From positions 60,001 through 92,000 of the forward strand of contig CAKQHZ010000002.1 of the NCBI GenBank assembly GCA_934246625.1: a stretch of 32,000 nucleotides of DNA, given 5' to 3'. Numbering within the stretch: the first letter of the stretch is position 1; each line of letters opens with the position of its first letter. Source of the DNA: an uncultured Alphaproteobacteria bacterium. GTDB taxonomy: Bacteria; Pseudomonadota; Alphaproteobacteria; Rs-D84; CACZYB01. The notes under the pieces are model-generated. The model did not search any database. It had not been told where the DNA came from and worked only from the letters and a program-made list of their open reading frames with translations. Positions 7,881 through 30,993 of this stretch are shown here, piece by piece. The translations under genes and the position numbers were made by a program.

Positions 7881-8174
7881 TTAATATAAGAATTTTTCTT
7901 CGCGTTTAAGTTTCTTTTTCAAATTGGAATCCAAAATAACTTTAACCTTATATTGACGCAAAGCCTGACTATCTTCATTCATTTCCGTAATATTGACTTC
8001 ATCTACCAAACGCAAAGCCTTTAATACCTTTCTTGGAATATAGGAAAGTTTCACAATTTCATTTTCATCACGAAACAACGCAAGCAACTTTTTCCCATCA
8101 AAAACCATAAATGGATTTAATGGTGAACTTGGTCTTGCCAACATCACAAGCATAAGTTTTCCACTTGCATTCAC
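7881..8174 (-). CDS. hypothetical protein (97 aa from GTG 8174; possibly 109 aa from a non-canonical ATT at 8210)
   Basis: The ORF remains open upstream to 8223. A strong SD AAGGAG (8223-8218, minus strand) lies 7 nt before an in-frame ATT at 8210, whereas GTG 8174 has no SD. Confidence 0.45.
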   Translation of the reverse strand: MNASGKLMLVMLARPSSPLNPFMVFDGKKLLALFRDENEIVKLSYIPRKVLKALRLVDEVNITEMNEDSQALRQYKVKVILDSNLKKKLKREEKFLY

Positions 8175-8329: not shown

Positions 8330-8860
8330 ATGCCAAGTAATTATTCAGACAGCCCATCAATGGACGAAATTTTAGAACGTATCAAAAGGGCATTATCAGA
8401 CAGAGAAACAAAATCTTCATATTATGAAGAGGAAGAACATTACGAAGTTTCATCTGAATACCCAACAAACAAAAGAAACTCTTCATTATCATTCGAAGAA
8501 ATGAAGGAACTTTCATCATCAAGGGAAATGACAAACAAAATTGTTCAACCTTTGGCAGATGATGACATTTTCATAAAACCAGTCATCACACAAAAAACAA
8601 CCGAAGATGAAATAATAAAACCATTAAAAAAATCTGAAAAACTTAATCAACCAAAAATAAACGATGATGTTTTTGTTCTTACAAAAAGTATGAAAATAAA
8701 TCACAAACTTAACTTTGAAAACGTGGATTTGGATAAACTTTATAAAAACATATCCCTTGAACTTGGTCGAGATTTGGCAATCGCCTATCTGTCCCCAAAA
8801 ATCGAAAGCTGGTTCAAAATCAATATGCCAGATATGATAAAAAAATCACAAAACAAATAA
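8330..8860 (+). CDS. DUF2497 / PopZ-like protein
   Basis: N-terminal SPSMDEILERIKRALSD resembles the PopZ/DUF2497 N-terminal helix (..MEEILASIRRII..). An acidic low-complexity middle and a conserved-looking C-terminal helix region (LSPKIESWFKINMPDMIKK) follow. SD agagggaaaaATG. Confidence 0.55.
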   Translation: MPSNYSDSPSMDEILERIKRALSDRETKSSYYEEEEHYEVSSEYPTNKRNSSLSFEEMKELSSSREMTNKIVQPLADDDIFIKPVITQKTTEDEIIKPLKKSEKLNQPKINDDVFVLTKSMKINHKLNFENVDLDKLYKNISLELGRDLAIAYLSPKIESWFKINMPDMIKKSQNK

Positions 8861-8894: not shown

Positions 8895-10940
8895 TTACTT
8901 CAAACCGCACATACAATTCCTAAATTTAATAGCAGACCTCTTCAACTCTGTAATAGTTGATATTGGGTCAGCCAACTCTGTCCCATCATTTGATGCCCAA
9001 CCAACATACTTTTTCCATTCAGGCAAAGAGGAAGTATCACAATTATTCGGATTTGAAGACATATTTGAAATTATAGTAATAAACTTTTCCGCAACATCTA
9101 ACTCTATTGCCACATTATCAACATACTTAATATTCGGAATACTTGGACATTCCTTTGTAACAGAAGTTGTCGCAACAGAGGACTTTCCTGTGGTTGAAAC
9201 GCCACTACTACTTTTTCTTCCACTACTTGCACCACCACTAGCACAAGCACACTTTTTAATTTGACTCATAACCCCGACAATATCACTTTCACTAGGACAA
9301 GCCCTTCCATTACCAATCTTCTTACACTCATCATAGGCTTTAAACAAACTTATCAACCTTTGCTTTTCATTATTTGTGCAATTTGGTAAAGTATGAGTTT
9401 CCAAAAATGTATCCCACTTTTTCCTTGTTTCATATTTGATGTTAAGGTCTGGCACATCGGCACAATCACCACCACTGCCACCATTACCACCACAAAAAGA
9501 AGCACAATTATTGTATAAATACAATGACGCACCATTTGCATATTGACTTCCAAACTGTGTAAATGATTGTCCGAACACAGAATTGATTCGTCCCAAGGTC
9601 AAAGAAATTTTGTAATCAAAACGACCGGAAGATTCGCCAATACAGAAGAACTCATTACCACCACTGGTAAAACGTTCATACCAATTTCGTGTGCCGAGAT
9701 TCCCACTTGCACAATTTGGGAAAAATACCTTACAAATTCCACCTTTTGTTAAGCTAAAGTTTTGTGATGGCAAAGCACTTGAACAATTTGAAGCCCCACT
9801 TACACCAACAGACGGAGAAGAATAAGGTGATGATGAAGATGGCATTTTCAAATCGGTCAAAGAAACATTATCATCATTATCATTGACCGTAACATTACTT
9901 TTTCCAACGGCTGTCATATCACCAGTTCCAAGCCCCAAATTCAACCCAACGAAATTTGAAAGTTTTGTTTTCACACATTCGCTACTTGTATTGCCTTGTT
10001 CATACCCATACTTACAAACCAATCGGCATTCAGGAGCCCCATCTTCCACAAATTGCCATCTTTCACCACCAACTGGCAAAGGGGAATTAAGGCAGTCCAC
10101 ACTTCTGAACCAATAATTAACAATCTTGTTTGCGGTTGCACGGCCAAGCTCCTCCGCCTGAGCCCTCGCCCTTACATAAGCCAAATTTTCACGATTATCA
10201 AGGTCATAATCATTGACCTTTGTCAAAGAATAATCCTCCTCGCCACAGGCAAGTTCAGCCATTTCCATATATCCAGCCAAAACGCCATCAACAACCTGAC
10301 GCCAATTTTCACGTTTTTTTGTATTTTGCCCAGTCAACAACATATCCATCTGGGCCCCGATATTTGAATCGCCATAATCACCCGCCTTATAAAAACGGTC
10401 CACCATATTTTCATCACGGCTTTGATTATACCCACAAAGAGTTGTCAACTTTGAACGCAAAGAGGCATCAATACTTCCATCAGACGCAATCATTTCCGCC
10501 CAACACTTTTTTGCGGATTCAAGGGCAAGTGAGGCACTTTGACATTCCTTTGTTGACTTTTTCAACGCGGTTTCAATTTTATCCTTTCCCGCAAGCAAAG
10601 AAACAATATAATTATAGGTATAAGCCTTACACCCAGTATTCAAATTCAATTCCTTTATCACGGCACGTGTATCCAAACAATCTTCGACATTAAGTTGTAT
10701 AGTCGAAGCTGACACACTTCCACATTTTGAATACACCCCCTTTTCCAAAGTTTTTTTATCAAAACAATAACGATTAAAACAATAATCAATATTTTCACGA
10801 CATTCTGTTTCAGAAGGGTCCTTTAACTTCACAGAAGAAGTTGTATTTAACGAAGTCCTTTTTTTTGAAGATGTTCTTGCCGCCATAAGGTTCAAAGAGG
10901 CACAAGTCAAACCAATAACAAACACGAAAAATTTTTTCAT
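8895..10940 (-). CDS. large exported cysteine-rich protein D (681 aa), unknown family
   Basis: Signal peptide MKKFFVFVIGLTCASLNLMA|ARTSSKKRTS, then a basic Ser/Thr-rich linker and C-x6-C (ECRENIDYC). I count 31 Cys (30 after the signal peptide). An internal G/S-rich patch is present (CGGNGGSGGDC). No enzymatic or beta-barrel motif recognised. Confidence 0.88.
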   Translation of the reverse strand: MKKFFVFVIGLTCASLNLMAARTSSKKRTSLNTTSSVKLKDPSETECRENIDYCFNRYCFDKKTLEKGVYSKCGSVSASTIQLNVEDCLDTRAVIKELNLNTGCKAYTYNYIVSLLAGKDKIETALKKSTKECQSASLALESAKKCWAEMIASDGSIDASLRSKLTTLCGYNQSRDENMVDRFYKAGDYGDSNIGAQMDMLLTGQNTKKRENWRQVVDGVLAGYMEMAELACGEEDYSLTKVNDYDLDNRENLAYVRARAQAEELGRATANKIVNYWFRSVDCLNSPLPVGGERWQFVEDGAPECRLVCKYGYEQGNTSSECVKTKLSNFVGLNLGLGTGDMTAVGKSNVTVNDNDDNVSLTDLKMPSSSSPYSSPSVGVSGASNCSSALPSQNFSLTKGGICKVFFPNCASGNLGTRNWYERFTSGGNEFFCIGESSGRFDYKISLTLGRINSVFGQSFTQFGSQYANGASLYLYNNCASFCGGNGGSGGDCADVPDLNIKYETRKKWDTFLETHTLPNCTNNEKQRLISLFKAYDECKKIGNGRACPSESDIVGVMSQIKKCACASGGASSGRKSSSGVSTTGKSSVATTSVTKECPSIPNIKYVDNVAIELDVAEKFITIISNMSSNPNNCDTSSLPEWKKYVGWASNDGTELADPISTITELKRSAIKFRNCMCGLK

Positions 10941-11572: not shown

Positions 11573-14500
11573 TTAGAATCGATAGATTGACACATCACCA
11601 GGTCCACCACCCCAACCGTAATTCTCACCTACATCACCACAACCACCTCTTCGAATATCATTTGTTCCATGTCTAGAGCCACTTTTTGAACAATCTGAAG
11701 ATTTTTTACCTTCAACATAGTCTAGGTCAGTAGCATTATCACCATTATGACATGACCAATGCATGAACTTTGCTCTAGTATAACTACCTTCAGCACCATT
11801 ACCACCTTCTGATACAATAGAAACTAATTCTGGTATACTAAAACTTGATGAGCCACCTTTACCACCATCACCTGCATCTTTACCTGCCTTAGCTGAACTA
11901 CCACCTTTACCACCAGCACCTACTGTATAGGTAAAGGCTGTATCATTGACAACAATAAATGTTTCATATTTATATTGTCCCCAACCACCATCACCACCAG
12001 ATGTTTGACAACCGAACACACTACCGCCACCGCCACCGCCGGCACCTTGAACAACAACTTTATACACACCTGCGGACAATGTGCCACTTCCGCCTTCCAT
12101 TTTAACCTTTTGTGAATCGGTGTGTTCAAAGCTAAATTCACGAATTTTTGTCTGTATATTCTTCATTGCATTTGATTTATCGAAATCTGGCAAATCAACA
12201 CATGTAAGTTCAGGATATTCCGCATTTGATAATGCATCATAGTTTGCATCACCTGTAATTCCATACGCACTGTTTGGTTTTACATAAACATTACCTGAAG
12301 AATTTGCCTTTACCGTTAATAATTTAAGGGCATTTACAAAATCAAAACCACTAATTGAACTTGAATGATTAACAAAATAATCTGTCATTTGTGAACCAAT
12401 TTCGGAACATTTGTTAAGCACACTGGTTCCATTTGTTTCCATAACTGCACTTTTCATTTTTTCCACATTTGCAAGATATTGTTTATCCTGTTGTGTTTTT
12501 GTGGTATTGGCTTCCATTTCATAATTTGCCTTGTCAATCGCAGTTTGAACCTTTTGTTGTGCTAACTCTGCCTTTGCAGTAATAGTGTTAATTGTTCGGG
12601 TTGCATCATCTTTTTTCAATGCGTTTGCAACATCGGAAATGGTTGTAATATCTTTAACTTTATTTTTAATAATCACAGCCAAAGCATCTTCAAGATAATT
12701 TTTGATTTGTGTATCAAATTTTGCATAGCTTGTATCACGCACAGAAATCAAGTTTGCTTCATACATATCACATGATTTTTTTGCACTCATAAAATCAAGT
12801 TCGGCATAATCGGTATTTGTGTTATATGTTCCATCAGAAGATGGTTCCACATCTGATTTTGGCCAAAAACCTGACAAATAATATCTTTCCAAATCTGCCT
12901 TGTATGTAGCTTTACATGAAGCAAGTAAGGTTTTGTTTTTATTAAATTCACGATAGGTTTGGGCGACAGTTGAACTAACACCGCTTAATGACTTTGTCTT
13001 TCCATCAAAACAATAATTTGAAGCTCTGTTAAACAAAGCACTTGGGAATACCAATCCAGCCCCAAGAGGTGGCACTACGTTAATAGAAAACAAAGAACTA
13101 TCTCTGTTGATACCTAAATCGGTATAAATACTTCTTGCATCTTTTTCCTCTTCTTGTTGAGAGGCAACAAAGCAAGCCTGTGAATTACCACAAGTTGAAT
13201 TTCCCTGACATTTACGGATAAGTTCATTCCATGTTGAACCCGCAGGACATCTTGCACACTTTTTTTGCAAGCTATCATAAGTATCATTGTCTAATGGACA
13301 AGCCTGTGAAGAAGAACTTGTCGTTGAAACAAACTCCGCCGTTGACACATTTGCATCAAAATATTTTTTGTTTTCTGAATCATAAAGTTGGCATGCACCG
13401 ACAGAAGCATTATATTTATATCCATCACTACACTTTGTTGATGTGTTAAGCAAAGATGATATATCAAAAGTTTTAAGTGTTTCCAAACCTAAACCTTCGA
13501 TTCGTTGTTTATAAAGTTCAGAATTTGTGAAATTAACCATCTTAAGTTCACCAGAATCAAGTCGTTTCAATGCCTCCTTATAATATTCCGCAGAAGATGT
13601 TGTTCCAAACACATTTGCAATTTCGGCACGAACCTTTGCATCACCTGTTAAACCATCGGTGTTTGTATCTTCTGATGAAAGGACACAATAATTTGTTTTA
13701 ACACCAATAGCACTTTTAAGTGTGGTATTTCGTAAATCACAATAATAATTATATGCAAAATACAAATCGTTCACATCACGTGCGGAACAATTACTATTTA
13801 CAAAATCTTGATATTCCGAAGAAGTTGCTTGCAAATCTCCTGAATCTTTATAGGTATTTACCAAGACCTTTTCTTTACATAATTTTTGATATGTTTTCCA
13901 ATTATTATCAAAAGTTTTGTTTGCGGATAAAAACGCATTCAAAGTTTTATATTTTTCACAAGTTGCGCAAATTCCTGTTTTTGCCTTTGTATTTAGTGTC
14001 AATGTTGCATCACCAGATTCGGAACAAGTCGCACTTGTCAAATAACTTGAAAATTGGTTGTTTATATATGAATTAATATTGTCCTGAGCAATATTAAAAC
14101 TTGCCAAAGTTGATTCGTTTAACACAGAACGACAACTTGAAACCACCTGCATATTTTGTGGTAATTGGGAATTTGACCTATCATAAAACAAACATCTGAA
14201 AGGTTCCTGTGTATCAAGATAAGCCTGAACCGCTTCATCATCATAAAGATATGTGTATTTATCAATAACATCGTTGATTTGAGAATCCATACATGACACA
14301 AATGCTTCACGACATTTTTGTTCTTCCACCTTTTGAGAAGATGCACTTTCAGAAAGATTTTTACCTATCTTTGATGCCAATGATGATGTTGTTGCGGCAC
14401 GTCTTGTATTTAATCTTGTTTTTGCATTACCACCAGTTGCGGCACGCTTTCTTGAACCTGCTCTTGCAGTTTTTTTAGAAGATGATTTTTTTGCACCAGT

Positions 14501-14635
14501 ATTTGCCTTTCGCACAGATTTTTTTGTTGTTTTTTTAACTTGTGAAAAAGCAATATCAACATATGAAGTAAATGAAATCATTACTGCAATAAAATAAACA
14601 AGAATATGCTTTAACATTTTTTTAATCATTTTCAT
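11573..14635 (-). CDS. large exported cysteine-rich protein, tandem paralog A (1020 aa) with C-terminal glycine-rich domain; function unknown
   Basis: Signal peptide (..FIAVMISFTSYVDIAFS|QVKK), a ~75-aa Lys/Arg/Ser/Ala/Thr linker, and a motif scaffold shared with B and C (CREAFVSCMDSQI, PFRCLFYD, LYFAYNYYCD, LFSINVVPPLGAG, LERYYLSG, SAKKSCDMYE, CVDLPDF). I count 28 Cys. The start ATG overlaps the stop of B (ATGA). Confidence 0.92.
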   Translation of the reverse strand: MKMIKKMLKHILVYFIAVMISFTSYVDIAFSQVKKTTKKSVRKANTGAKKSSSKKTARAGSRKRAATGGNAKTRLNTRRAATTSSLASKIGKNLSESASSQKVEEQKCREAFVSCMDSQINDVIDKYTYLYDDEAVQAYLDTQEPFRCLFYDRSNSQLPQNMQVVSSCRSVLNESTLASFNIAQDNINSYINNQFSSYLTSATCSESGDATLTLNTKAKTGICATCEKYKTLNAFLSANKTFDNNWKTYQKLCKEKVLVNTYKDSGDLQATSSEYQDFVNSNCSARDVNDLYFAYNYYCDLRNTTLKSAIGVKTNYCVLSSEDTNTDGLTGDAKVRAEIANVFGTTSSAEYYKEALKRLDSGELKMVNFTNSELYKQRIEGLGLETLKTFDISSLLNTSTKCSDGYKYNASVGACQLYDSENKKYFDANVSTAEFVSTTSSSSQACPLDNDTYDSLQKKCARCPAGSTWNELIRKCQGNSTCGNSQACFVASQQEEEKDARSIYTDLGINRDSSLFSINVVPPLGAGLVFPSALFNRASNYCFDGKTKSLSGVSSTVAQTYREFNKNKTLLASCKATYKADLERYYLSGFWPKSDVEPSSDGTYNTNTDYAELDFMSAKKSCDMYEANLISVRDTSYAKFDTQIKNYLEDALAVIIKNKVKDITTISDVANALKKDDATRTINTITAKAELAQQKVQTAIDKANYEMEANTTKTQQDKQYLANVEKMKSAVMETNGTSVLNKCSEIGSQMTDYFVNHSSSISGFDFVNALKLLTVKANSSGNVYVKPNSAYGITGDANYDALSNAEYPELTCVDLPDFDKSNAMKNIQTKIREFSFEHTDSQKVKMEGGSGTLSAGVYKVVVQGAGGGGGGSVFGCQTSGGDGGWGQYKYETFIVVNDTAFTYTVGAGGKGGSSAKAGKDAGDGGKGGSSSFSIPELVSIVSEGGNGAEGSYTRAKFMHWSCHNGDNATDLDYVEGKKSSDCSKSGSRHGTNDIRRGGCGDVGENYGWGGGPGDVSIYRF

Positions 14636-16644
14636 TTCCCTTCATTTTCATTTTCTTTTGACACACTTTTATCTGGGAAAGTTTCTTCTAAATGCTTTTT
14701 AACTTGATCCTTTACAGTAGCCCCATAACTTGTTTCCAAATTACCAGGTAAATTAGAAAGGAATGCTAACTTATAACTAAATGTTGGAATATCAACACAA
14801 TAAATTTGATAATATCCAGCAGTCTTACCCTTATCCGCACTTCCATTTGAAATTGCAATATATTTATCATAATTGGAATCTGATGAAGGGATAACATCAC
14901 CTTCACGGTTAATTTTAACTGACTTTGCCTTTAGATTACCAATCCAATTCCAAAATTGAGATTTAACTTCATCTTTTGAAAAGCAAGAAGCTCCACTACT
15001 TCCACAATCAGTATTATAACTATTCAAAATCATAGTAGAACACTTTGTCAATGCTGGTGTAGCATAAGTAGAAGCGAAAGTTGATGCCAATTCCTTTTGT
15101 GAAGATGCCTTTTGCACAGCAACATTTGACAATGTCAAATTATATTCAGATTCGGCCAATGCAGCATCACCCTCAGCCTTTAATTTAGCCATTGCCATTT
15201 CACTTTCAACCTTTGAACGTTCATTTGTAATTTGGTTATCTAACTTTTTCAAATTTGTTTCAGCAGCAGCAAGTGAAGCAGTAGACTTCATCTTCTTTTT
15301 TACCATTTTTGCAAGATTATCTTCAATCCAATTTTGCATTTGGTTATCAAATTCACCATACTTTTTATCACGTGTAGAAATCAAAGCCTGTTCATATAAA
15401 CCACAACTTTCCTTTGCAGAAAAGAAAGCGGATGTAATATCTTCGGTTGTTCCACCTTCTATTTGATTACCATTGTCATCAACCTTTACACCTTCCCATT
15501 TTCCAGACAAATAATATCTTTGAAGGTTATCTTTTAAAGATATACAATTATTTGAATTAAATTGAGCAATTTGTTTATTTCGCGTGCGAATTGCTTCCTT
15601 TTGTGCAGTTGTTCCAACAACTTCAGAAGCCTCCGTCTTTAAACAATTATTTGAAGCTGTATTAAATTGAGCACTTGCCAAATAAGCATTTGCCCCAATC
15701 GGTGGCACAACATTAATAGAAAATAATTCCGTTTCATCCTCTAAATTTAATTGATTAAAAATTTCTGAACCAATTTTACCGTTAATAACATAAGAATCTT
15801 CATTTTCCAAATCAAGTTGGTTAATAAAATTTTTATAAATAGTAGAACTTTCAAGGTTAATCATTTGAAGTCCATCATTACTCATACGTTTCAAAACTTC
15901 ATTATAATAAGCAACACTATACTTTGTTGCAAAATTTGAACCTGCAGACAAATCGCATTGATTTATCTTTCTTCCAATATTGTTTTTTAATTTACGTTGA
16001 ATATCACAAAAATAATTATATGAATTATAAAGTTCATTCACACCACGTTGAGTATAACAACTTTCTTCTGTGATACCAATACAAGTTTTTTTATCATCAT
16101 TTAAAGCAGACGTATTTGATTTTAAAACATTTGAATTTGGGTCATAAAATACACATCTGAAAGGTTGACCAGTTTCAAGTGCAAGCTCCACAGATTCATC
16201 ATCACTTAAAAAAGAATACTTTGAAAGAGTGCTTGAAATTTGATTATCCATACAATCCACATAAAGATTGATACAAGTTTGTTCTGATGCAGTTGTATTA
16301 TCATTTAACTGATTCATAAATGATAAACTTTTACCAATAGTTGTTCTTACAGTTGCGGCACGTCTTGAATTTCTTCTGGAATTTCTAGTTGTTGCGGCAC
16401 GCCTACTATTTTTTCCAGACAAAGTTCTTTTCTTTGATGTTGCCTGTCTTTTTACACCAGCAGAAGATTTTCTTACACCTGAAGATGAGTTTGATTTCTT
16501 TCTGGCGCCACCTGCTTTTCTTACTGTTTTCTTTGCCACCTTTCTAGGTGCAGCACCCACAGGCAAAGAAACTGAAAGCACAGTAATTCCAGAATATAAA
16601 AATACCAACAATGGTATCATAAATTTTTTTAATACTAACTTCAT
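14632..16644 (-). CDS. large exported cysteine-rich protein, tandem paralog B (~670 aa), shortest member; function unknown
   Basis: Signal peptide MKLVLKKFMIPLLVFLYSGITVLSVSLPVGA|APRK, a basic linker with RRAAT repeats, and the same motif scaffold (CINLYVDCMDNQI, PFRCVFYD, LYNSYNYFCD, ELFSINVVPPIGA, LQRYYLSG, SAKESCGLYE, IYCVDIPTF). I count 14 Cys. The start is ATG 16644 or upstream TTG 16656. Confidence 0.9.
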   Translation of the reverse strand: MKLVLKKFMIPLLVFLYSGITVLSVSLPVGAAPRKVAKKTVRKAGGARKKSNSSSGVRKSSAGVKRQATSKKRTLSGKNSRRAATTRNSRRNSRRAATVRTTIGKSLSFMNQLNDNTTASEQTCINLYVDCMDNQISSTLSKYSFLSDDESVELALETGQPFRCVFYDPNSNVLKSNTSALNDDKKTCIGITEESCYTQRGVNELYNSYNYFCDIQRKLKNNIGRKINQCDLSAGSNFATKYSVAYYNEVLKRMSNDGLQMINLESSTIYKNFINQLDLENEDSYVINGKIGSEIFNQLNLEDETELFSINVVPPIGANAYLASAQFNTASNNCLKTEASEVVGTTAQKEAIRTRNKQIAQFNSNNCISLKDNLQRYYLSGKWEGVKVDDNGNQIEGGTTEDITSAFFSAKESCGLYEQALISTRDKKYGEFDNQMQNWIEDNLAKMVKKKMKSTASLAAAETNLKKLDNQITNERSKVESEMAMAKLKAEGDAALAESEYNLTLSNVAVQKASSQKELASTFASTYATPALTKCSTMILNSYNTDCGSSGASCFSKDEVKSQFWNWIGNLKAKSVKINREGDVIPSSDSNYDKYIAISNGSADKGKTAGYYQIYCVDIPTFSYKLAFLSNLPGNLETSYGATVKDQVKKHLEETFPDKSVSKENENEGK

Positions 16645-16712
16645 CTTTCCGTCCAACTATCCATATATTAAAGATATAACAGAAATTACCAAAAGTCAAT
16701 AAGTTATCAACA

Positions 16713-16740
16713 TAAAAAAAGAAGGGTCAAAGCCCTTCTC
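16713..16740 (-). terminator. Rho-independent terminator between paralog C and paralog B
   Basis: On the minus strand, agaaggg pairs with cccttct (16720-16726 / 16733-16739) and is followed by a T7 run (plus-strand A7 at 16714-16720). A TTGACT -35-like hexamer (16699-16694, minus) lies just downstream. Confidence 0.75.
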
Positions 16741-16750
16741 TTAAAATAAA

Positions 16751-19405
16751 TTATTTTTCTTTTCCTTCTTCCTCTTTATTTTCATCCGTCTTTGTGGAAT
16801 TAAGTATATCATCAGCACCAAGGACAACAGCTGTCACATTTTGGTCAAATAATTCCTTACCACGACCCATATAATGACCTTTTAACGCAGGAAGTTCAAT
16901 TGTTTTACTACTTGATTCTTTTACAAGACCTAAGAACTTTTCTGTTTTTGTTCGTTGTGTAACAACACACTTTCCATTTTCAATTCTTTGGTTATCATAT
17001 GAAACTTTTTTACTACCACCAAACATAGAAGAAATGAATCCTATAGCAGCTGGTATTCCACCAAGGACATTACCTCCTGCAATAATAGAAAGCCCAGCCA
17101 AAGCAAAACTACTTTTTACTCTTTCTATTGCAGTATTTGTTTCACTACCATTTGGTTTACCAGCAACACTAACATTTGATTTTTCATTTTCTTCATCGGC
17201 TTGTTTTTGTAAATCTTCCAAAACCTTTATCAATAATTCATTTTTACCAGTGCAAGAATATTCAAGCATACCATCATAAAGAATACTCATTGCATATCTT
17301 GATGGTTCCATAATTGATGTTTTAAAGTATGGAGCATCAACACAATAAATTTCAGTATATCCATCTGGCAAAGCAGAAGATGTTGTGGTTGTATTGCCAT
17401 TTGCGTCCATTGTTGTAACAGTCGCATCTTTTACATCGCCATCACGATTGATATAAATACTTTGAATATTCAAAAGGTTTGAAAGTTCTTCTAACTTCTT
17501 TGGTGATTTAAGGTTCATAAAGAAGTTATCCATACCTTGAATACATTCGGCATAATTTTCACCACAAACTGCACGCATAGAACTCATAACTTTAGGAGTG
17601 CAATAATTTGCAATTTGTCTTGGATATGTATCTGTGTAAAGTTTTGCACGTTCTTTACGTTGAGCGATAAGACTTTTATCAACTTCAAGTTTTTTCATAT
17701 CAAGATTAAGGTTTGCATTAAGAATTGCAATTTCCGCCTCTGATTTTGCATTTGCAATTTCCGCACGCATATTTGCAAGGTTAATTGAAATATCTGCATC
17801 TGCTTGTTGTAAAGATTGGAAAGAAGATGCAATAGTTTTAAGATCTTTTGTCTTTTTCTTAACAAGTTTTGCAACCTCATCCTCAATATAGTTTTTAAGA
17901 TAAGTATCAAAATTTGCATATTGAGTATTACGCACAGAAATCATAGTATTTTCATACATATCACATGATTTTTTTGCACTTAAGAAATCTGATTGAACAA
18001 GAAACATTTGGTCATAAGTCAATTCGTCTTCTGTTGTAATTTCTGTTTTTGGAGCAAGGTTATAAAGTGAAGTTTTATCTTCATCAATACCCTTTTCCTC
18101 TGCTTCTTTAGCTATCTTTGATTCAATAGTTCTGTTTTCACCATTAAAACTACATTTATTTGTTTTTTGGTTATATTCATAAGAAGCTGGACAATAAACC
18201 TTTGCAGTTCCAGCAAGGTAATATCTTTCCAAATCGCTACGAACTTCGGCTTCACCACAATTTGTAAGTATAGAAATATCTGACTTTATAGTTTTTTCAT
18301 CTTCAGTCAAAGTTTTTCCAGCAGGTTTAAACACCTGTGCACCAAAGCAAATATCACTTGCCTTTTGGAAAATACCACTTGCATTTAAACTTCCTGCGCC
18401 AACAGGTGGCACAACATTGATAGAAAATAATTCACTATCAGAAGATGCCAATCCCAAATCTTCCATCAAATCGGAAACTGAATTTGTTTCTGAGCATGTG
18501 CAACCAGCACTTCCTTCTTGACAAGATTTGTTATCACTATCAACACAAGTCTTACTTGTCAAACTCATCATATCCCAATTTTCAAGGTCAAGTTTTGAAA
18601 TTTTATTTTTAAAAAGATTTGTTTGTTCAAAGTTAATAATTTTAAGTTCACCCGCTTGAACACGTCTATTTGCTTCGGCATAGTAAGCAGCAGAATCCTT
18701 TGTCGCAAACACATTATTTTTGCTTTTACCACCATTTGAATATTGTTTTATATTACATTTATTTACTGGCATACCAGCCACACCAACTTCTGATGTATCC
18801 AAATCACAATAATAATTATATGACATATAAAGTTCATTTATATCCTTTTGATTTGAACAAAAGTTATAATTATTAAAGGCATTTTCCTTACCAATTTTAT
18901 TTAATGACAAATCAACCTTTCCACTTGTTGAATTGATAAGGTTATCATTTCTTTTTGACATTTGTTCTTCTGAACAATATTTAGAAGTTGTTGCATCACC
19001 AAACAAATTATCAACATTACTTGAATTATAATAAATACAACGCAATGGGTCATTTGTTTCTTGCATAGCTTGAACACCTTGGTCATCAGCCAAATAGCTA
19101 TAAGATGCAATTATATTATTGATTTGCAAATCCATACATTCTGTATATGCGGAACGACAATCCTTTTTTGCTGAACCACTTGAAGTTGTTCCAGTCGCAA
19201 TAACACCACGACCAGCAGTTCTTCCTGCTTGACGTTTGTTTCCAACACTTCTCACAGACTTTTTAGAAGAGCCACCTCTTGATGCTTGACGTTTTGTTGA
19301 TTTTTTACCAGATGATTTTGAAGTTTTTCTCGCCGCAAATGCAGGCAAAGTAAATTCACCAATAAAAGTAAATAAACTAAGGAAAACTATAAAATTTTTA
19401 AACAT
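16751..19405 (-). CDS. large exported cysteine-rich protein, tandem paralog C (~884 aa) with C-terminal glycine-zipper hydrophobic segment; function unknown
   Basis: SD GGGAGA lies 7 nt before ATG 19405 (the track's TTG 19420 is probably too early). Signal peptide MFKNFIVFLSLFTFIGEFTLPAFA|ARKTSK, a basic linker, and the scaffold motifs (CRSAYTECMDLQI, PLRCIYYN, LYMSYNYYCD, ELFSINVVPPVGA, LERYYLAG, SAKKSCDMYE, IYCVDAPYF). I count 22 Cys. Confidence 0.92.
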   Translation of the reverse strand: MFKNFIVFLSLFTFIGEFTLPAFAARKTSKSSGKKSTKRQASRGGSSKKSVRSVGNKRQAGRTAGRGVIATGTTSSGSAKKDCRSAYTECMDLQINNIIASYSYLADDQGVQAMQETNDPLRCIYYNSSNVDNLFGDATTSKYCSEEQMSKRNDNLINSTSGKVDLSLNKIGKENAFNNYNFCSNQKDINELYMSYNYYCDLDTSEVGVAGMPVNKCNIKQYSNGGKSKNNVFATKDSAAYYAEANRRVQAGELKIINFEQTNLFKNKISKLDLENWDMMSLTSKTCVDSDNKSCQEGSAGCTCSETNSVSDLMEDLGLASSDSELFSINVVPPVGAGSLNASGIFQKASDICFGAQVFKPAGKTLTEDEKTIKSDISILTNCGEAEVRSDLERYYLAGTAKVYCPASYEYNQKTNKCSFNGENRTIESKIAKEAEEKGIDEDKTSLYNLAPKTEITTEDELTYDQMFLVQSDFLSAKKSCDMYENTMISVRNTQYANFDTYLKNYIEDEVAKLVKKKTKDLKTIASSFQSLQQADADISINLANMRAEIANAKSEAEIAILNANLNLDMKKLEVDKSLIAQRKERAKLYTDTYPRQIANYCTPKVMSSMRAVCGENYAECIQGMDNFFMNLKSPKKLEELSNLLNIQSIYINRDGDVKDATVTTMDANGNTTTTSSALPDGYTEIYCVDAPYFKTSIMEPSRYAMSILYDGMLEYSCTGKNELLIKVLEDLQKQADEENEKSNVSVAGKPNGSETNTAIERVKSSFALAGLSIIAGGNVLGGIPAAIGFISSMFGGSKKVSYDNQRIENGKCVVTQRTKTEKFLGLVKESSSKTIELPALKGHYMGRGKELFDQNVTAVVLGADDILNSTKTDENKEEEGKEK

Positions 19406-19552
19406 ATATCCATCTCCCAATTTTCACATAAAATTCTAATATATATTTTTTCTCTTAATTATATTACAATCATTCGAAACAAAAGTAAATAATTTTATTG
19501 ATTTTTCTCATATTTTTTTGTAAAAGATATATGTCAAAATGAAAGGGAGAAA

Positions 19553-21268
19553 ATGAATATATTTATGATTCTTATTATGGCTGTTATGCTAGGAATGTAT
19601 CAATACTTTACTGCAAAAAAGTCATCTGAAGTAACATTAAATAAAGAAGAACGAGCTTTCGAAGTTGAACTTAACTGTCTTAAACAATTTCATGATTATG
19701 GAGCATCACGAAACGAAGCACAACTTACATCTGGTCCAATAAATCCAAATTATACCTGTGCTGGACACGAAAATATAAAAATGTATAAATATTGCCTTAA
19801 TAATAACGTTGAAACACCTTGTTCTGAAACATCAATCACAGAACATTGCGTTGCAACCACTATGGCAAAGGAAAAATTGGATAATTCATTAAAAGCACTC
19901 CTTTTTCAAAAGGGTATTGATGAAATAAAGGCTGGAAATCTAATAAAAGGAAAAAAAATATCAGCACAAAATCACCCTGTATCAACAGTTGCCTCAACAT
20001 CTTTTGGACTTACAACCTGTGTTCCTGCTGAACGTATTTCACAAAATGAAAAACTTGCAAAGGATAATTGTGCAAAGGAAGGTAAATTTGCCACACTTAA
20101 AGCTGATGGTTCTTTTGAATGCACCGATGTGCCAGAAGTTTCCGAATGCACCGCACACGAAGATTCTGTTGTAAATATATCTGGTCGTCAAAATTGCACT
20201 GGTCCTATAAATGGTAAATATTGTTGTGCAAAAATCAATCTTGAAAAAACTGTTTGTGGAAGCGATCCAAACATCAAAGCAACATGGAACGCAAATACTC
20301 GTTTTTATAATTGCACAACTGGTGAAGAAACCTGTAATGTAAAAGATAATGTTATGGACGTTGTTGATGAAAACAATACAAAGAAAGACGAAATAATAAT
20401 CAAAAAAGATTCAACCGATAAATTTTATATTGCAAAATATAATACAACAAAAAAGGCATGGGATTGTATTCCAAATTCACGATTACTTATCGACCTTTGT
20501 AAATCAAAAACATTGGAAAACGAACTTGCATACGTTTCTGTTTCCGACCTTTCTGTTTCAAATGGAAAGCCTGTATGTAAAGGAGCATCAAGCAAAGCGC
20601 CAAGTGCTGTTGAAACTTGTTCTGCTTGTGGTATTCCAACACTTAACAAATCAACAAACCAATGGTATTGCAAATACCCAAATTGGAACACCGAATTAAA
20701 AAATAATCCAACCGCAATGAACAATTACATAAACACCGTCTACAAAGCATCTGGTATAAATAATAAGGGTATTGAAGCCTGCTTTAGAGGCTGTTCTGCA
20801 GATATGATAAACAAATTAAGACAAGGTGTTGTAAATGGACTTTTATGGGGATTAACCTGGAATAACAACTCAAAGCTATTTGAATGCTTTAAATGTGGAG
20901 ATTATTCAAATGAAAATGGTTCTTCTTTCTATAATGGTGCATATATAAACAACCTATGTAAAAATGGAAACTTTTCATCAACTCCAGCATCCGTTTGCAT
21001 AGATAATAAGTATTCCGATGCTACTTGCACAAATTCTGAAATCAACGGAAGATGTGTTATAAAATGTTGTAATGACTTATATCAAAAACGTGGAACAGAT
21101 GGTAAATGTTATACAAAATGGTGCCGAAAAATTCCTGCTGAAATAAATGCAGTTATCAACAAACCACAAGAAAAAGTATGTCCAAAAACACACCCTCGTT
21201 CTATATATAATTCAGTTCAGGATTGTGTATATTGCATAAAAACACCACCTGTATCAACAGATAAATAA
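19553..21268 (+). CDS. exported or membrane-anchored cysteine-rich protein E (571 aa), unknown family
   Basis: SD agggag lies before the ATG. The N-terminus is uncharged and hydrophobic (MNIFMILIMAVMLGMYQYF), a signal sequence or signal anchor. I count 36 Cys (about 6% of residues) spread over the whole length, including CC, CxxC and CxC pairs. It is transcribed divergently from paralog C. Confidence 0.88.
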   Translation: MNIFMILIMAVMLGMYQYFTAKKSSEVTLNKEERAFEVELNCLKQFHDYGASRNEAQLTSGPINPNYTCAGHENIKMYKYCLNNNVETPCSETSITEHCVATTMAKEKLDNSLKALLFQKGIDEIKAGNLIKGKKISAQNHPVSTVASTSFGLTTCVPAERISQNEKLAKDNCAKEGKFATLKADGSFECTDVPEVSECTAHEDSVVNISGRQNCTGPINGKYCCAKINLEKTVCGSDPNIKATWNANTRFYNCTTGEETCNVKDNVMDVVDENNTKKDEIIIKKDSTDKFYIAKYNTTKKAWDCIPNSRLLIDLCKSKTLENELAYVSVSDLSVSNGKPVCKGASSKAPSAVETCSACGIPTLNKSTNQWYCKYPNWNTELKNNPTAMNNYINTVYKASGINNKGIEACFRGCSADMINKLRQGVVNGLLWGLTWNNNSKLFECFKCGDYSNENGSSFYNGAYINNLCKNGNFSSTPASVCIDNKYSDATCTNSEINGRCVIKCCNDLYQKRGTDGKCYTKWCRKIPAEINAVINKPQEKVCPKTHPRSIYNSVQDCVYCIKTPPVSTDK

Positions 21269-21297: not shown

Positions 21298-22218
21298 TTA
21301 TTTTGCATGTGGGTGAGCCCTCTTATACGTTTTTATAACTTCGTTCATATTCAATTTGGTATAAAGCTGTGTTGTTGAAAGTGAGCTATGTCCCAACAAT
21401 TCTTGAATAGTCCGCAAATCAGTTCCATTTAACAATAACTGTGTTGCAAAACTATGTCTTAAACTATGTGGAGTAGTTTCCTTTGGAAGCCCAACATAAT
21501 TTCTTGCCTTTTCAATATCTCGCTCTGCAACTCGAGGAGTAAGTCTTGCCCCTCTGCTTCCACGGAAAATTGGGTCATTCATTCGAAAATCAAATGGTGC
21601 CACCTTTAAATACTCATCAATAACATCTGTTATAATTGGCAACAATGGAACAATTCGTGTTTTATTTCCTTTACCTTTTATAACCAAAACATCAACATTT
21701 TTTATATCTGAAAGGTTAAGATTTAACGCCTCTGAAATACGAAGACCTGCCCCATAAATAAGTGTGAACAAAGCCTTATCACGTTTGGCTTGCCACTTTT
21801 CAAGAATAACCAAATCAAAGCTATCAAGAAGTTTTATTACATCAACCCCATCAACCGCCTTTGACAATCGCTTTGGCACCTTTGGAGATTTTAAAATTTC
21901 TATATTCGAATTCCTTGCAATATCATTTTCATTTACAAATTTAAAAAAATTCTTAATACTTGAAATTGTTCGTGCAATACTGGTTGCACTTAATTCCTTT
22001 TCACAGTCATTTTTAATATGTGCAACAAATCCACGAAATTCAGTAATGGAAATATGCTCCAAATCTTTCTCAGTCAAATTATTTTTATTATATATTTGAT
22101 AAAGATAAGCAATAAATTTATTAAAATCGCGATTGTATCCTTTCACTGTATTTTCCGAAACTCTTCGTTCAGATTTCAAAAAATCCAACCACATATTTTT
22201 TATTTGAATTATATCCAT
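21298..22218 (-). CDS. site-specific tyrosine recombinase, XerC/XerD family
   Basis: N-terminal core-binding region (FLKSERRVSENTVKGYNRDFNKF). Catalytic residues sit in GAGLRISEAL (Arg), PHSLRHSFATQLL (His-x-x-Arg) and LGHSSLSTTQLYTKL (His, Tyr). Confidence 0.88.
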   Translation of the reverse strand: MDIIQIKNMWLDFLKSERRVSENTVKGYNRDFNKFIAYLYQIYNKNNLTEKDLEHISITEFRGFVAHIKNDCEKELSATSIARTISSIKNFFKFVNENDIARNSNIEILKSPKVPKRLSKAVDGVDVIKLLDSFDLVILEKWQAKRDKALFTLIYGAGLRISEALNLNLSDIKNVDVLVIKGKGNKTRIVPLLPIITDVIDEYLKVAPFDFRMNDPIFRGSRGARLTPRVAERDIEKARNYVGLPKETTPHSLRHSFATQLLLNGTDLRTIQELLGHSSLSTTQLYTKLNMNEVIKTYKRAHPHAK

Positions 22219-23220: not shown

Positions 23221-23507
23221 CTGGACGGTCAGAGAACTGCTGTATGTTTGGCATATAGAGGAAAGTCCGGACACCACAAGGGAAAGATAATGGGTAATGC
23301 CCATCAGGAGTAATCCGAGGATAAGAGCCACAGAGACGAGCCTGTTAAGTCAGGGTGAAACGCGGCAATCTCTATCTGGTGCAAGACTAAACAGGATAGC
23401 GTTGAGTGCCCTTGGGAGCTATCGGGTAAGTCGCAAAGAGTTATACAGCAATGTATATCCAAGATGAATAGTTCTCTAACACAGAATCCGGCTTATAGAC
23501 TGTCCAT
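23221..23507 (+). ncRNA. rnpB: RNase P RNA, bacterial type A, unusually short (about 287 nt)
   Basis: Universally conserved blocks AGAGGAAAGTCCGGAC (about 23257-23272) and ACACAGAATCCGGCTTATAG (about 23480-23499). P1 pairing is tggacggtc (23222-23230) with gactgtcca (23498-23506). P2 pairing is agagaact with agttctct. GGGTGAAA and CCAAGATGAATAG blocks are also present. Confidence 0.92.
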
Positions 23508-23524
23508 TTTTATAAGGTAAAAAT

Positions 23525-30916: not shown

Positions 30917-30993
30917 GCGGGTGTAGCTCAGTTGGCTAGAGCGCAACCTTGCCAAGGTTGAGGTCGTGGGTTCGAGCCCCATTACCCGCTCCA
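30917..30993 (+). tRNA. tRNA-Gly (anticodon GCC), CCA encoded
   Basis: Cloverleaf: acceptor gcgggtg/tacccgc, D arm gctc..gagc, anticodon stem caacc/ggttg with loop ttGCCaa, and T arm gtggg-ttcgagc-cccat. It is very similar to E. coli tRNA-Gly(GCC). Confidence 0.95.

Follow-up and report, generated by a model that had tools for sequence, protein, structure and literature searches.

The window analysed here, a 32,000-nucleotide (nt) stretch of DNA from an uncultured alphaproteobacterium (assembly GCA_934246625.1, contig CAKQHZ010000002.1, positions 60,001 to 92,000), carries three large open reading frames (ORFs), A, B and C, which fill positions 11573-19420 of its minus strand. We hold with high confidence that they belong to a rare, unannotated family whose modular plan is conserved and whose three distinct paralogs are kept in fixed order. 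The paralogs are ancient and non-redundant, and when description and mechanism are weighed together, we lean by a narrow measure towards an envelope or surface fibre with variable tips as what the trio forms.

The modular plan of A, B and C

Read in the sense of transcription, the trio starts with C, and the order is C, B, A:

16751-19405, minus strand: gene C, 884 amino acids (aa) from the ATG at 19405; a TTG-initiated ORF extends to 19420 (889 aa)
16717-16742, minus strand: terminator-like hairpin and subsequent T-run, within the 94 nt that separate C from B
14632-16644, minus strand: gene B, 670 aa from the ATG at 16644; a TTG-initiated ORF extends to 16656 (674 aa)
11573-14635, minus strand: gene A, 1020 aa

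The ATG codons at 16644 and 19405 are the likely starts of B and C, as they fit the lengths of the database proteins P0001 (670 aa, 99% identical to B) and P0013 (884 aa, 100% identical to C). The start codon of A overlaps the stop codon of B (ATGA), and B and A are tightly linked at every locus, by an overlap of 4 to 8 nt or a gap of at most 18 nt (8-nt overlap in locus L001 and 4-nt overlap in L010; gaps of at most 18 nt in L004, L007 and L009). The spacing between C and B ranges from 94 to 326 nt across loci. Given the hairpin and the ATGA overlap, B and A may form a transcription unit of their own, apart from C.

The sequence-only reading that preceded this work had described, by eye, three tandem paralogs sharing one ordered scaffold of numbered motifs. 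Indeed, A, B and C were collinear in a formal multiple alignment with MAFFT, a check proposed in that reading, with B and C being 36% and 33% identical to A, and BLASTP connected all pairs (E = 2e-40 for A-B, 1e-43 for A-C and 4e-68 for B-C). Regular expressions for motifs 3, 4, 6, 7, 8 and 10 found one match per protein in identical order, motif 5 was visible in the alignment, and translation at the positions given earlier for these elements (motifs 3 and 6) yields the expected peptides to within 1 to 2 nt. Paralogy therefore stands. The common plan consists of a predicted signal peptide, a polybasic disordered tail, a Cys-containing head, a 127-residue helix, a small C-terminal domain and a variable tip; B, without a tip domain, is the minimal scaffold. 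The parts are laid out as follows:

14540-14635, minus strand: predicted signal peptide of A, residues 1-32, N-terminal hydrophobic segment
14315-14539, minus strand: polybasic disordered linker of A, residues 33-107 (22 Lys plus Arg against 3 Asp plus Glu; predicted local distance difference test [pLDDT] score below 50 for residues 21-91)
12788-14314, minus strand: head of A, motifs 3 to 7, Cys containing, with A-specific Cys-rich insertions
12407-12787, minus strand: stalk helix of A, 127 residues, with motif 8 (SAKKSC) at its start and the conserved Cys743 at its end
12182-12406, minus strand: C-terminal alpha/beta domain of A, ending in motif 10 (LTCVDLPDF)
11576-12181, minus strand: variable tip of A, with the PF21722 domain (residues 858-1012) at 11600-12064
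16552-16644, minus strand: predicted signal peptide of B, N-terminal hydrophobic segment
16276-16551, minus strand: polybasic disordered linker of B (26 Lys plus Arg against 2 Asp plus Glu; pLDDT below 50 for residues 1-112)
15421-16275, minus strand: head of B, motifs 3 to 7 (block-mean pLDDT 72-93 for residues 121-260 and 311-440)
15040-15420, minus strand: stalk helix of B, 127 residues
14779-15039, minus strand: equivalent of the C-terminal domain in B
19331-19405, minus strand: predicted signal peptide of C, N-terminal hydrophobic segment
19160-19330, minus strand: polybasic linker of C, called from the charge count
17981-19159, minus strand: head of C, motifs 3 to 7
17600-17980, minus strand: stalk helix of C, 127 residues
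17324-17599, minus strand: equivalent of the C-terminal domain in C
16754-17323, minus strand: clade-specific C-terminal tail of C, with a Gly/Ala-rich hydrophobic segment at residues ~778-797

Signal peptides were called in all members from a conserved N-terminal hydrophobic segment with small-x-small sites, from which we infer that the trio proteins are exported by the Sec system. A lipoprotein anchor was considered and rejected, since a conserved lipobox Cys is absent. The linkers (60 to 90 aa, rich in Ser, Thr and Ala, with a repeated (K/R)RAA-type motif) are basic and of low complexity, as had been claimed, with 18 to 26 Lys plus Arg against 1 to 3 Asp plus Glu. The large insertion after motif 3 of A, put earlier at about 130 aa, is likewise real and measures roughly 125 aa. 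Paralog-specific insertions at residues ~400-465 of A (13240-13440) and ~410-450 of C (18070-18190) contain repeated Cys-hairpin motifs of the form C-x2-(G/S)-Y-x-Y-N-x5-6-C. They resemble extracellular mini-repeats of the furin or epidermal growth factor-like type, with no significant match in Pfam (CBM_14, E = 0.55; CxC3, E = 0.026).

Along the stalk, from the Ser of motif 8 to the next conserved Cys, exactly 127 residues were counted in each of the 18 complete A-, B- and C-clade members and also in L006, even though paralogs are only 25 to 28% identical over this segment; more distant single-copy members have 148, 130 and 112 residues. No Gly or Pro is conserved in the stalk, and its hydrophobic periodicity is about 3.6 to 3.8. 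The AlphaFold2 model of B (31 aligned sequences; pLDDT 72; predicted template modelling score [pTM] 0.49) has residues 1-112 disordered, confident helical and beta elements at ~120-260 and ~310-440, a continuous helix at 414-530, a second helix at 532-551 and then an alpha/beta C-terminal domain. The model of A (pLDDT 69; pTM 0.46) follows the same plan with additional beta-hairpin insertions and a single helix at 618-756. The segment that had been called heptad-like is thus one continuous helix in both models. A helical hairpin, suggested by a colicin-like match, was dropped, since DSSP assigned one continuous helix in both models and there is no conserved Gly/Pro turn. Moreover, the number of Cys residues from motif 3 onward is even in all 20 complete members despite a range of 14 to 28, from which it follows that Cys residues were added in pairs by insertions. 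Together with the Cys parity of the neighbouring Cys-rich families described below, this points to probable disulfide bonding outside the cytoplasm.

The earlier expectation that the scaffold was novel was confirmed. The core had no match in Pfam below an E value of 0.01, none in NCBIfam, PHROGs or PADLOC, and none at E ≤ 1 in a profile search of PDB sequences; with the B model as Foldseek query, neither PDB nor BFVD gave a match, the best E values being 1.2 and 1.1, respectively. The core forms a new family, with a predicted fold that is possibly new as far as PDB and BFVD tell.

The family is rare. Its profile found 81 matches at E ≤ 1e-3 and 35 at E ≤ 1e-30 among 1.84 billion cluster-representative proteins, and a scan of 185,579 species genomes, one per species, located 11 loci in about nine metagenome-assembled genomes (MAGs). 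An alignment-based search of an index of 5.8 billion proteins, in which the word prefilter was saturated at 8000 candidates, yielded nothing beyond the single-sequence search. The titles of the MAGs are mostly Alphaproteobacteria or Rickettsiales and the rest are generic, except for one labelled Bacteroidales. The family is restricted to a small group of uncultured low-GC Alphaproteobacteria that are known solely from MAGs. The exception, L016 and L017 (CAZHAL01 contigs of an "uncultured Bacteroidales bacterium" MAG), carries family genes together with genes like those of the 571-aa and 681-aa neighbours described below, and its label is probably a binning or labelling error.

C-type, B-type and A-type genes follow each other in that transcription order in L001 (on the same contig as L008), L004, L009 and L010, and the more distant MAGs (L006 and L011 to L014) have a single copy. 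A neighbour-joining tree of 25 members, built on 543 well-occupied columns, resolved clean A, B and C clades, each with the same species branching. Therefore, the triplication took place before these species radiated, and A, B and C have stayed distinct genes. The distant full-length relatives P0060 and P0073 retain the signal peptide, the basic repeats and recognisable motifs 3 to 8.

The 30-nt block shared by A and C

A perfect 30-nt match between A and C had been reported by the sequence-only reading, which offered very strong constraint or gene conversion between the copies as explanations. The match is exact: positions 12758-12787 of A and 17951-17980 of C, the first 30 nt of both stalk segments, are identical at 30 of 30 nt. 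High identity was also found in the 51 nt around motif 8, the best such span having 45 of 51 identities where 44 had been counted. Translated, the block reads SAKKSCDMYE, which opens motif 8 and is the most conserved peptide of the family. This peptide is present in the C-type proteins of L004 and L009 and in the A-type protein of L001, and A- and C-type orthologs of other genomes have SAKKSCD[ML]YE, which bears out the constraint; the identity at the amino acid level is therefore ancestral and not a product of homogenisation. Because of a strong AT bias in codon usage (GAT 0.90, TAT 0.94, GAA 0.91, TGT 0.84), 56 to 62% of the codons at identical residues are identical in every pair of paralogs. 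When the codons at identical residues were redrawn from the usage of the three genes, the probability of a longest identical run of at least 30 nt was 0.005, and a per-residue empirical estimate was also 0.005. A permutation of codon columns gave p < 0.0002 for the 30-nt run and was discounted, since it takes no account of how conserved residues cluster; redrawing from codon usage and comparing across genomes test the run more fairly. The block is unusual without being overwhelming.

If the tandem duplicates were kept similar by ongoing gene conversion, identical blocks would be conversion tracts. Apart from the low probability of the run under the codon usage model, two observations speak for this. 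The 30-nt run between A and C of the window is the longest among within-genome paralog pairs, against 20 to 23 nt for A-C pairs elsewhere. Moreover, these two genes uniquely share AGT for the first and TCA for the second Ser of motif 8: AGT is found at the first Ser only in A and C of the window, whereas the 12 other A- and C-clade orthologs that cover the site have TCN, and a change from TCN to AGY at an invariant Ser needs two substitutions. However, conversion of this kind is improbable in view of the deep, separate orthologous clades, in which genes cluster by paralog type and not by genome, and of the overall nucleotide identity of A and C, which is only 45%. Over the 53 codons of the motif 8 region, A-C identity is 0.717 within the window, 0.686 and 0.698 in the cross-genome comparisons of the window with L004, and 0.73 within L004; since within-genome and cross-genome identities are about the same, there is no conversion tract beyond the block itself. 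C of the window differs from its L004 ortholog at 3 of the 30 nt, and the flanks of the block diverge immediately on both sides. Homogenisation of the paralogs by gene conversion was thus not upheld. A micro-conversion of at most 30 nt is plausible but doubtful, and most of the identity is explained without it: as read from the codons, the block would mostly reflect a conserved peptide written in preferred AT-rich codons. The nucleotide identity, coming mostly from an invariant peptide and AT-biased codons, is no demonstration of concerted evolution.

Strain-variable tips of A and C

Residues 858-1012 of A pass the gathering cutoff of the Pfam family PF21722 (Gly_rich_2) with E = 8.3e-8 and 32.9 bits (cutoff 24.3). 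Neither B nor C of the window matched PF21722, and the C-type orthologs in L001 and L010 do pass the cutoff. The C tip is a Gly/Ala-rich hydrophobic tail in the clade of the window and a Gly-rich domain in other clades. In a Foldseek search with the A model, only the C-terminal domain found matches, with the tail tip of mycobacteriophage Bxb1 (9d93_Qa, E = 4.2e-4), 7nx3_A (E = 8.5e-4) and 7lrz (E = 2.9e-3), at probabilities of 0.99 to 1.0; a fibre of cyanophage Pam3 (7yfw) was also matched, and for the phage structures probabilities were 0.9 to 1.0. The pLDDT of the tip in this model is mixed and is below 50 for residues 955-1004. Weak matches of the A C terminus to PHROG tail families were also seen (E = 3.5e-4 and 2.6e-3). 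Polyglycine-rich "brush" domains have been described as antireceptor domains of phages (PMC13243795), and no literature was found under PF21722/Gly_rich_2 or the MAG accessions. Two short secreted proteins of ~380 aa, P0069 and P0077, consist of the motif 10 domain and Gly_rich_2 only and end in ...VRIYK(L/I)D, which suggests that the distal module exists as an independent unit.

The tips are where close strains differ. Between L004 and L009, two near-identical strains, the neighbouring genes and most of A have about 0.02 synonymous substitutions per site (dS; 0.022 for the rest of A), whereas the Gly-rich tip of A (residues 891-1042) has a dS of 0.57 and 0.38 nonsynonymous substitutions per site (dN). 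In C, residues 561-941 have a dS of 0.64 and a dN of 0.60, against a dS of 0.035 in the remainder, and B is 98% identical. C switches near residue 560, midway along the stalk, and amino acid identity falls there from ~97% to ~40%; in A the switch comes at about residue 895, where the Gly-rich tip begins, and the number of repeats in its basic linker differs as well. In comparison with L009, L004 10001-12826 and 14902-18030 are mosaic alleles. The ~20-fold jump in dS, which point mutation alone does not explain, indicates that the tips of A and C are swapped as cassettes between close strains by recombination.

A comparable pattern is seen in the species of the window, for which the protein clusters have 60 to 69 members and variability was counted over 15 of them. 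In A, 71 of 139 variable sites fall within residues 851-1000, and A differs from the database protein P0024 at ~8 positions in the first 870 residues and at ~41 in the last 150. In C, variability peaks at residues 751-850. Variable sites are few in B and lie mostly in the last ~70 residues; a single divergent cluster member (92.7% identical) is probably the main source of them.

The resemblance of the tip to phage tail-tip and fibre proteins, together with the PHROG tail matches of A and a tyrosine recombinase gene near the trio (21298-22218), could be taken to mean that the trio is part of a prophage or consists of phage-derived tail fibre genes. We regard this as very improbable. No family member was found in IMG/VR (2.9 million viral contigs), the core has no fold match in BFVD, every member has a predicted signal peptide, the neighbours are housekeeping genes, and the recombinase is of the XerC/D type and is conserved and syntenic across loci.

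The variable C termini could also result from an arms race if the proteins were released toxins or bacteriocins that carry, like colicins, a receptor-binding tip on a long helix. The long single helix would fit, the top (non-significant) Foldseek match is colicin Ia, and the Gly/Ala-rich hydrophobic segment of C could insert into membranes. However, the colicin Ia match has E = 1.2 and a probability of 0.04, Pfam and PADLOC gave no toxin domain, and neither a small immunity-like gene after A, B or C nor a conserved small downstream ORF across loci was seen. Furthermore, the variable module of A is a Gly-rich domain of the binding type and no enzyme, and a conserved set of three paralogs in fixed order is atypical of toxin loci. 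We therefore rate this reading as improbable too.

Neighbouring genes, proposed assembly and known systems

The window (GC content ~32%) is a chromosomal segment of a Gram-negative bacterium. Its housekeeping and envelope genes include rpsP-rimM-trmD-rplS, DUF2155, lepB, rnc, BamE, gltX and a gene for an MlaD protein, as well as genes for the XerC/D-type recombinase, dCMP deaminase, RlmE (FtsJ) and an outer membrane protein (OMP) beta-barrel. Further features are:

19553-21268, plus strand: 571-aa protein, 36 Cys, hydrophobic anchor at the N terminus; divergently transcribed from gene C and a conserved neighbour
8895-10940, minus strand: 681-aa protein, 30 mature Cys, signal peptide and short basic stretch; co-occurs with the family
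8330-8860, plus strand: acidic 176-aa ORF with a weak match to NCBIfam PopZ_fam (E = 8e-5; 23.9 bits against a cutoff of 125 bits)
23221-23511, plus strand: bacterial RNase P RNA, class A (217 bits), an ordinary housekeeping RNA
30917-30993, plus strand: tRNA-Gly(GCC), an ordinary housekeeping RNA

Orthologs of the 571-aa protein adjoin the C-type gene in L001, L004, L009, L010, L015 and L016 and lie nearby in L011 and L012; in the four trio loci outside the window (L001, L004, L009 and L010) they have about 570 aa and lie upstream of C, in divergent orientation. Seven of eight members have 36 Cys, and comparison of L004 with L009 gave a dN/dS of about 0.04, a sign of strong purifying selection. 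The 571-aa protein had no match in Pfam, NCBIfam, PHROGs or PADLOC and is a candidate partner of the trio. The 681-aa gene is always accompanied by BamE and is found alongside the family at eight further distinct loci (L001, L004, L006, L009, L010, L011, L015 and L016). Members have mostly 26 to 30 mature Cys, no known domains were found, and homology to the trio or to the 571-aa protein was not detectable; the notion that the 571-aa and 681-aa proteins are diverged trio paralogs was rejected, with hhalign probabilities of 4%, 0.4% and 1%. The 681-aa protein carries a motif similar to the Cys-hairpins in the insertions of A and C. A functional link between BamE and the trio was not drawn from their adjacency, which was left as probably simple synteny, as it is the 681-aa gene, not the trio, that BamE accompanies.

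How might the trio work? The mechanism taken by itself, a fibre or adhesin, is a tentative proposal that could well prove wrong. Chains A, B and C would assemble in register through their stalks of equal length, probably as a hetero-oligomer, which is proposed because of the coupling of B to A and the constancy of B. The assembly would be a fibre or spike on the cell envelope, whose base the polybasic N-terminal tails may tether to anionic envelope material or to the neighbouring 571-aa membrane protein. The C-terminal tips of A and C would face outward and bind an external ligand, and their specificity would be renewed by recombinational replacement of cassettes.

Several points weigh against such a fibre. 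No outer membrane secretion or anchoring machinery is encoded near the trio, which bears on whether the proteins reach the cell surface or stay in the periplasm. Basic residues directly after a signal peptide can hinder Sec export. The AlphaFold models, by the scores given above, are of moderate quality, and the constant stalk length could serve as a ruler in homo-oligomers rather than in a hetero-oligomer.

The lack of an export device for the outer membrane would be expected if the proteins, with their signal peptides, formed a disulfide cross-linked structural layer of the envelope within the periplasm and bound peptidoglycan or membrane lipids through the polybasic tail. The even Cys counts, seen in the family as well as in both Cys-rich families next to it, and the presence of BamE and the OMP beta-barrel among the neighbours would also be in line with such a layer, which would be a functional counterpart of chlamydial Cys-rich envelope proteins (OmcB, for example) and which we consider unlikely. 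Cassette-like hypervariability of the tips between near-identical strains is hard to explain by it, the tip domain is of a type that serves binding of external receptors or ligands, and Pfam gave no match to chlamydial families.

The fibre with variable tips can be extended to a wider picture, which we think is rather unlikely in its full form. The trio would be the core of an undescribed surface apparatus of an uncultured, host-associated clade of Alphaproteobacteria: a disulfide-stapled hetero-oligomeric fibre with phage-like polyglycine cassettes that are swapped on two of the chains and change attachment to a host, a protist or other bacteria, maybe together with the 571-aa and 681-aa proteins. 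A phage tail-tip module would thereby have been domesticated onto a new fold. If the fibre is real, a new fold family would build an envelope fibre in poorly known Alphaproteobacteria that are represented by MAGs only, and cellular proteins would offer a clear case of a phage-type receptor-binding polyglycine domain in the role of an exchangeable tip. The 127-residue stalk, the Cys parity and the replacement of tips lead to concrete, testable predictions, and the family could help to mark diversity among strains of these uncultured bacteria.

Each of the known systems that come closest shares a part of the plan. The trio resembles chlamydial OmcB in that a predicted signal peptide precedes a basic stretch and a Cys-rich body, in a bacterium with a set of envelope proteins that is probably rich in disulfides. 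However, a Pfam scan found no sequence or domain match, and the trio has a long helix and a Gly-rich tip. Gram-negative adhesins with coiled-coil stalks, for example trimeric autotransporters of the YadA type, follow the same general logic: they are exported and have an elongated helical stalk with a strain-variable binding domain at the far end. In contrast to these, the trio has neither a beta-barrel translocator nor a YadA anchor, head or stalk domain (Pfam, E ≤ 1), its head and stalk show no sequence relationship to theirs, its variable tip lies at the C terminus, probably the reverse of their orientation, and there are three paralogs instead of a homotrimer. The glycine-rich domain of ALK and LTK (7nx3, 7lrz and 7nx0), an extracellular ligand-binding module, has the fold class of the A tip (Foldseek E = 8.5e-4 to 1e-2, probability 0.99 to 1.0), but it belongs to a eukaryotic receptor kinase, is only 14 to 19% identical in sequence and shares nothing else with A. 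The polyglycine domains of phage tail tips and fibres (Bxb1, 9d93; Pam3, 7yfw) match the A tip, its C-terminal 150 to 170 aa, by both PF21722 and Foldseek, and this tip is the distal and most strain-variable part of the protein. In the trio, unlike in phages, the domain sits on a probably Sec-exported chromosomal protein with an otherwise novel scaffold of 700 to 850 aa, only the tip is related, B is without it, and there is no phage context. The general kind to which the trio belongs is nonetheless a familiar one, that of exported, elongated proteins with variable binding tips.

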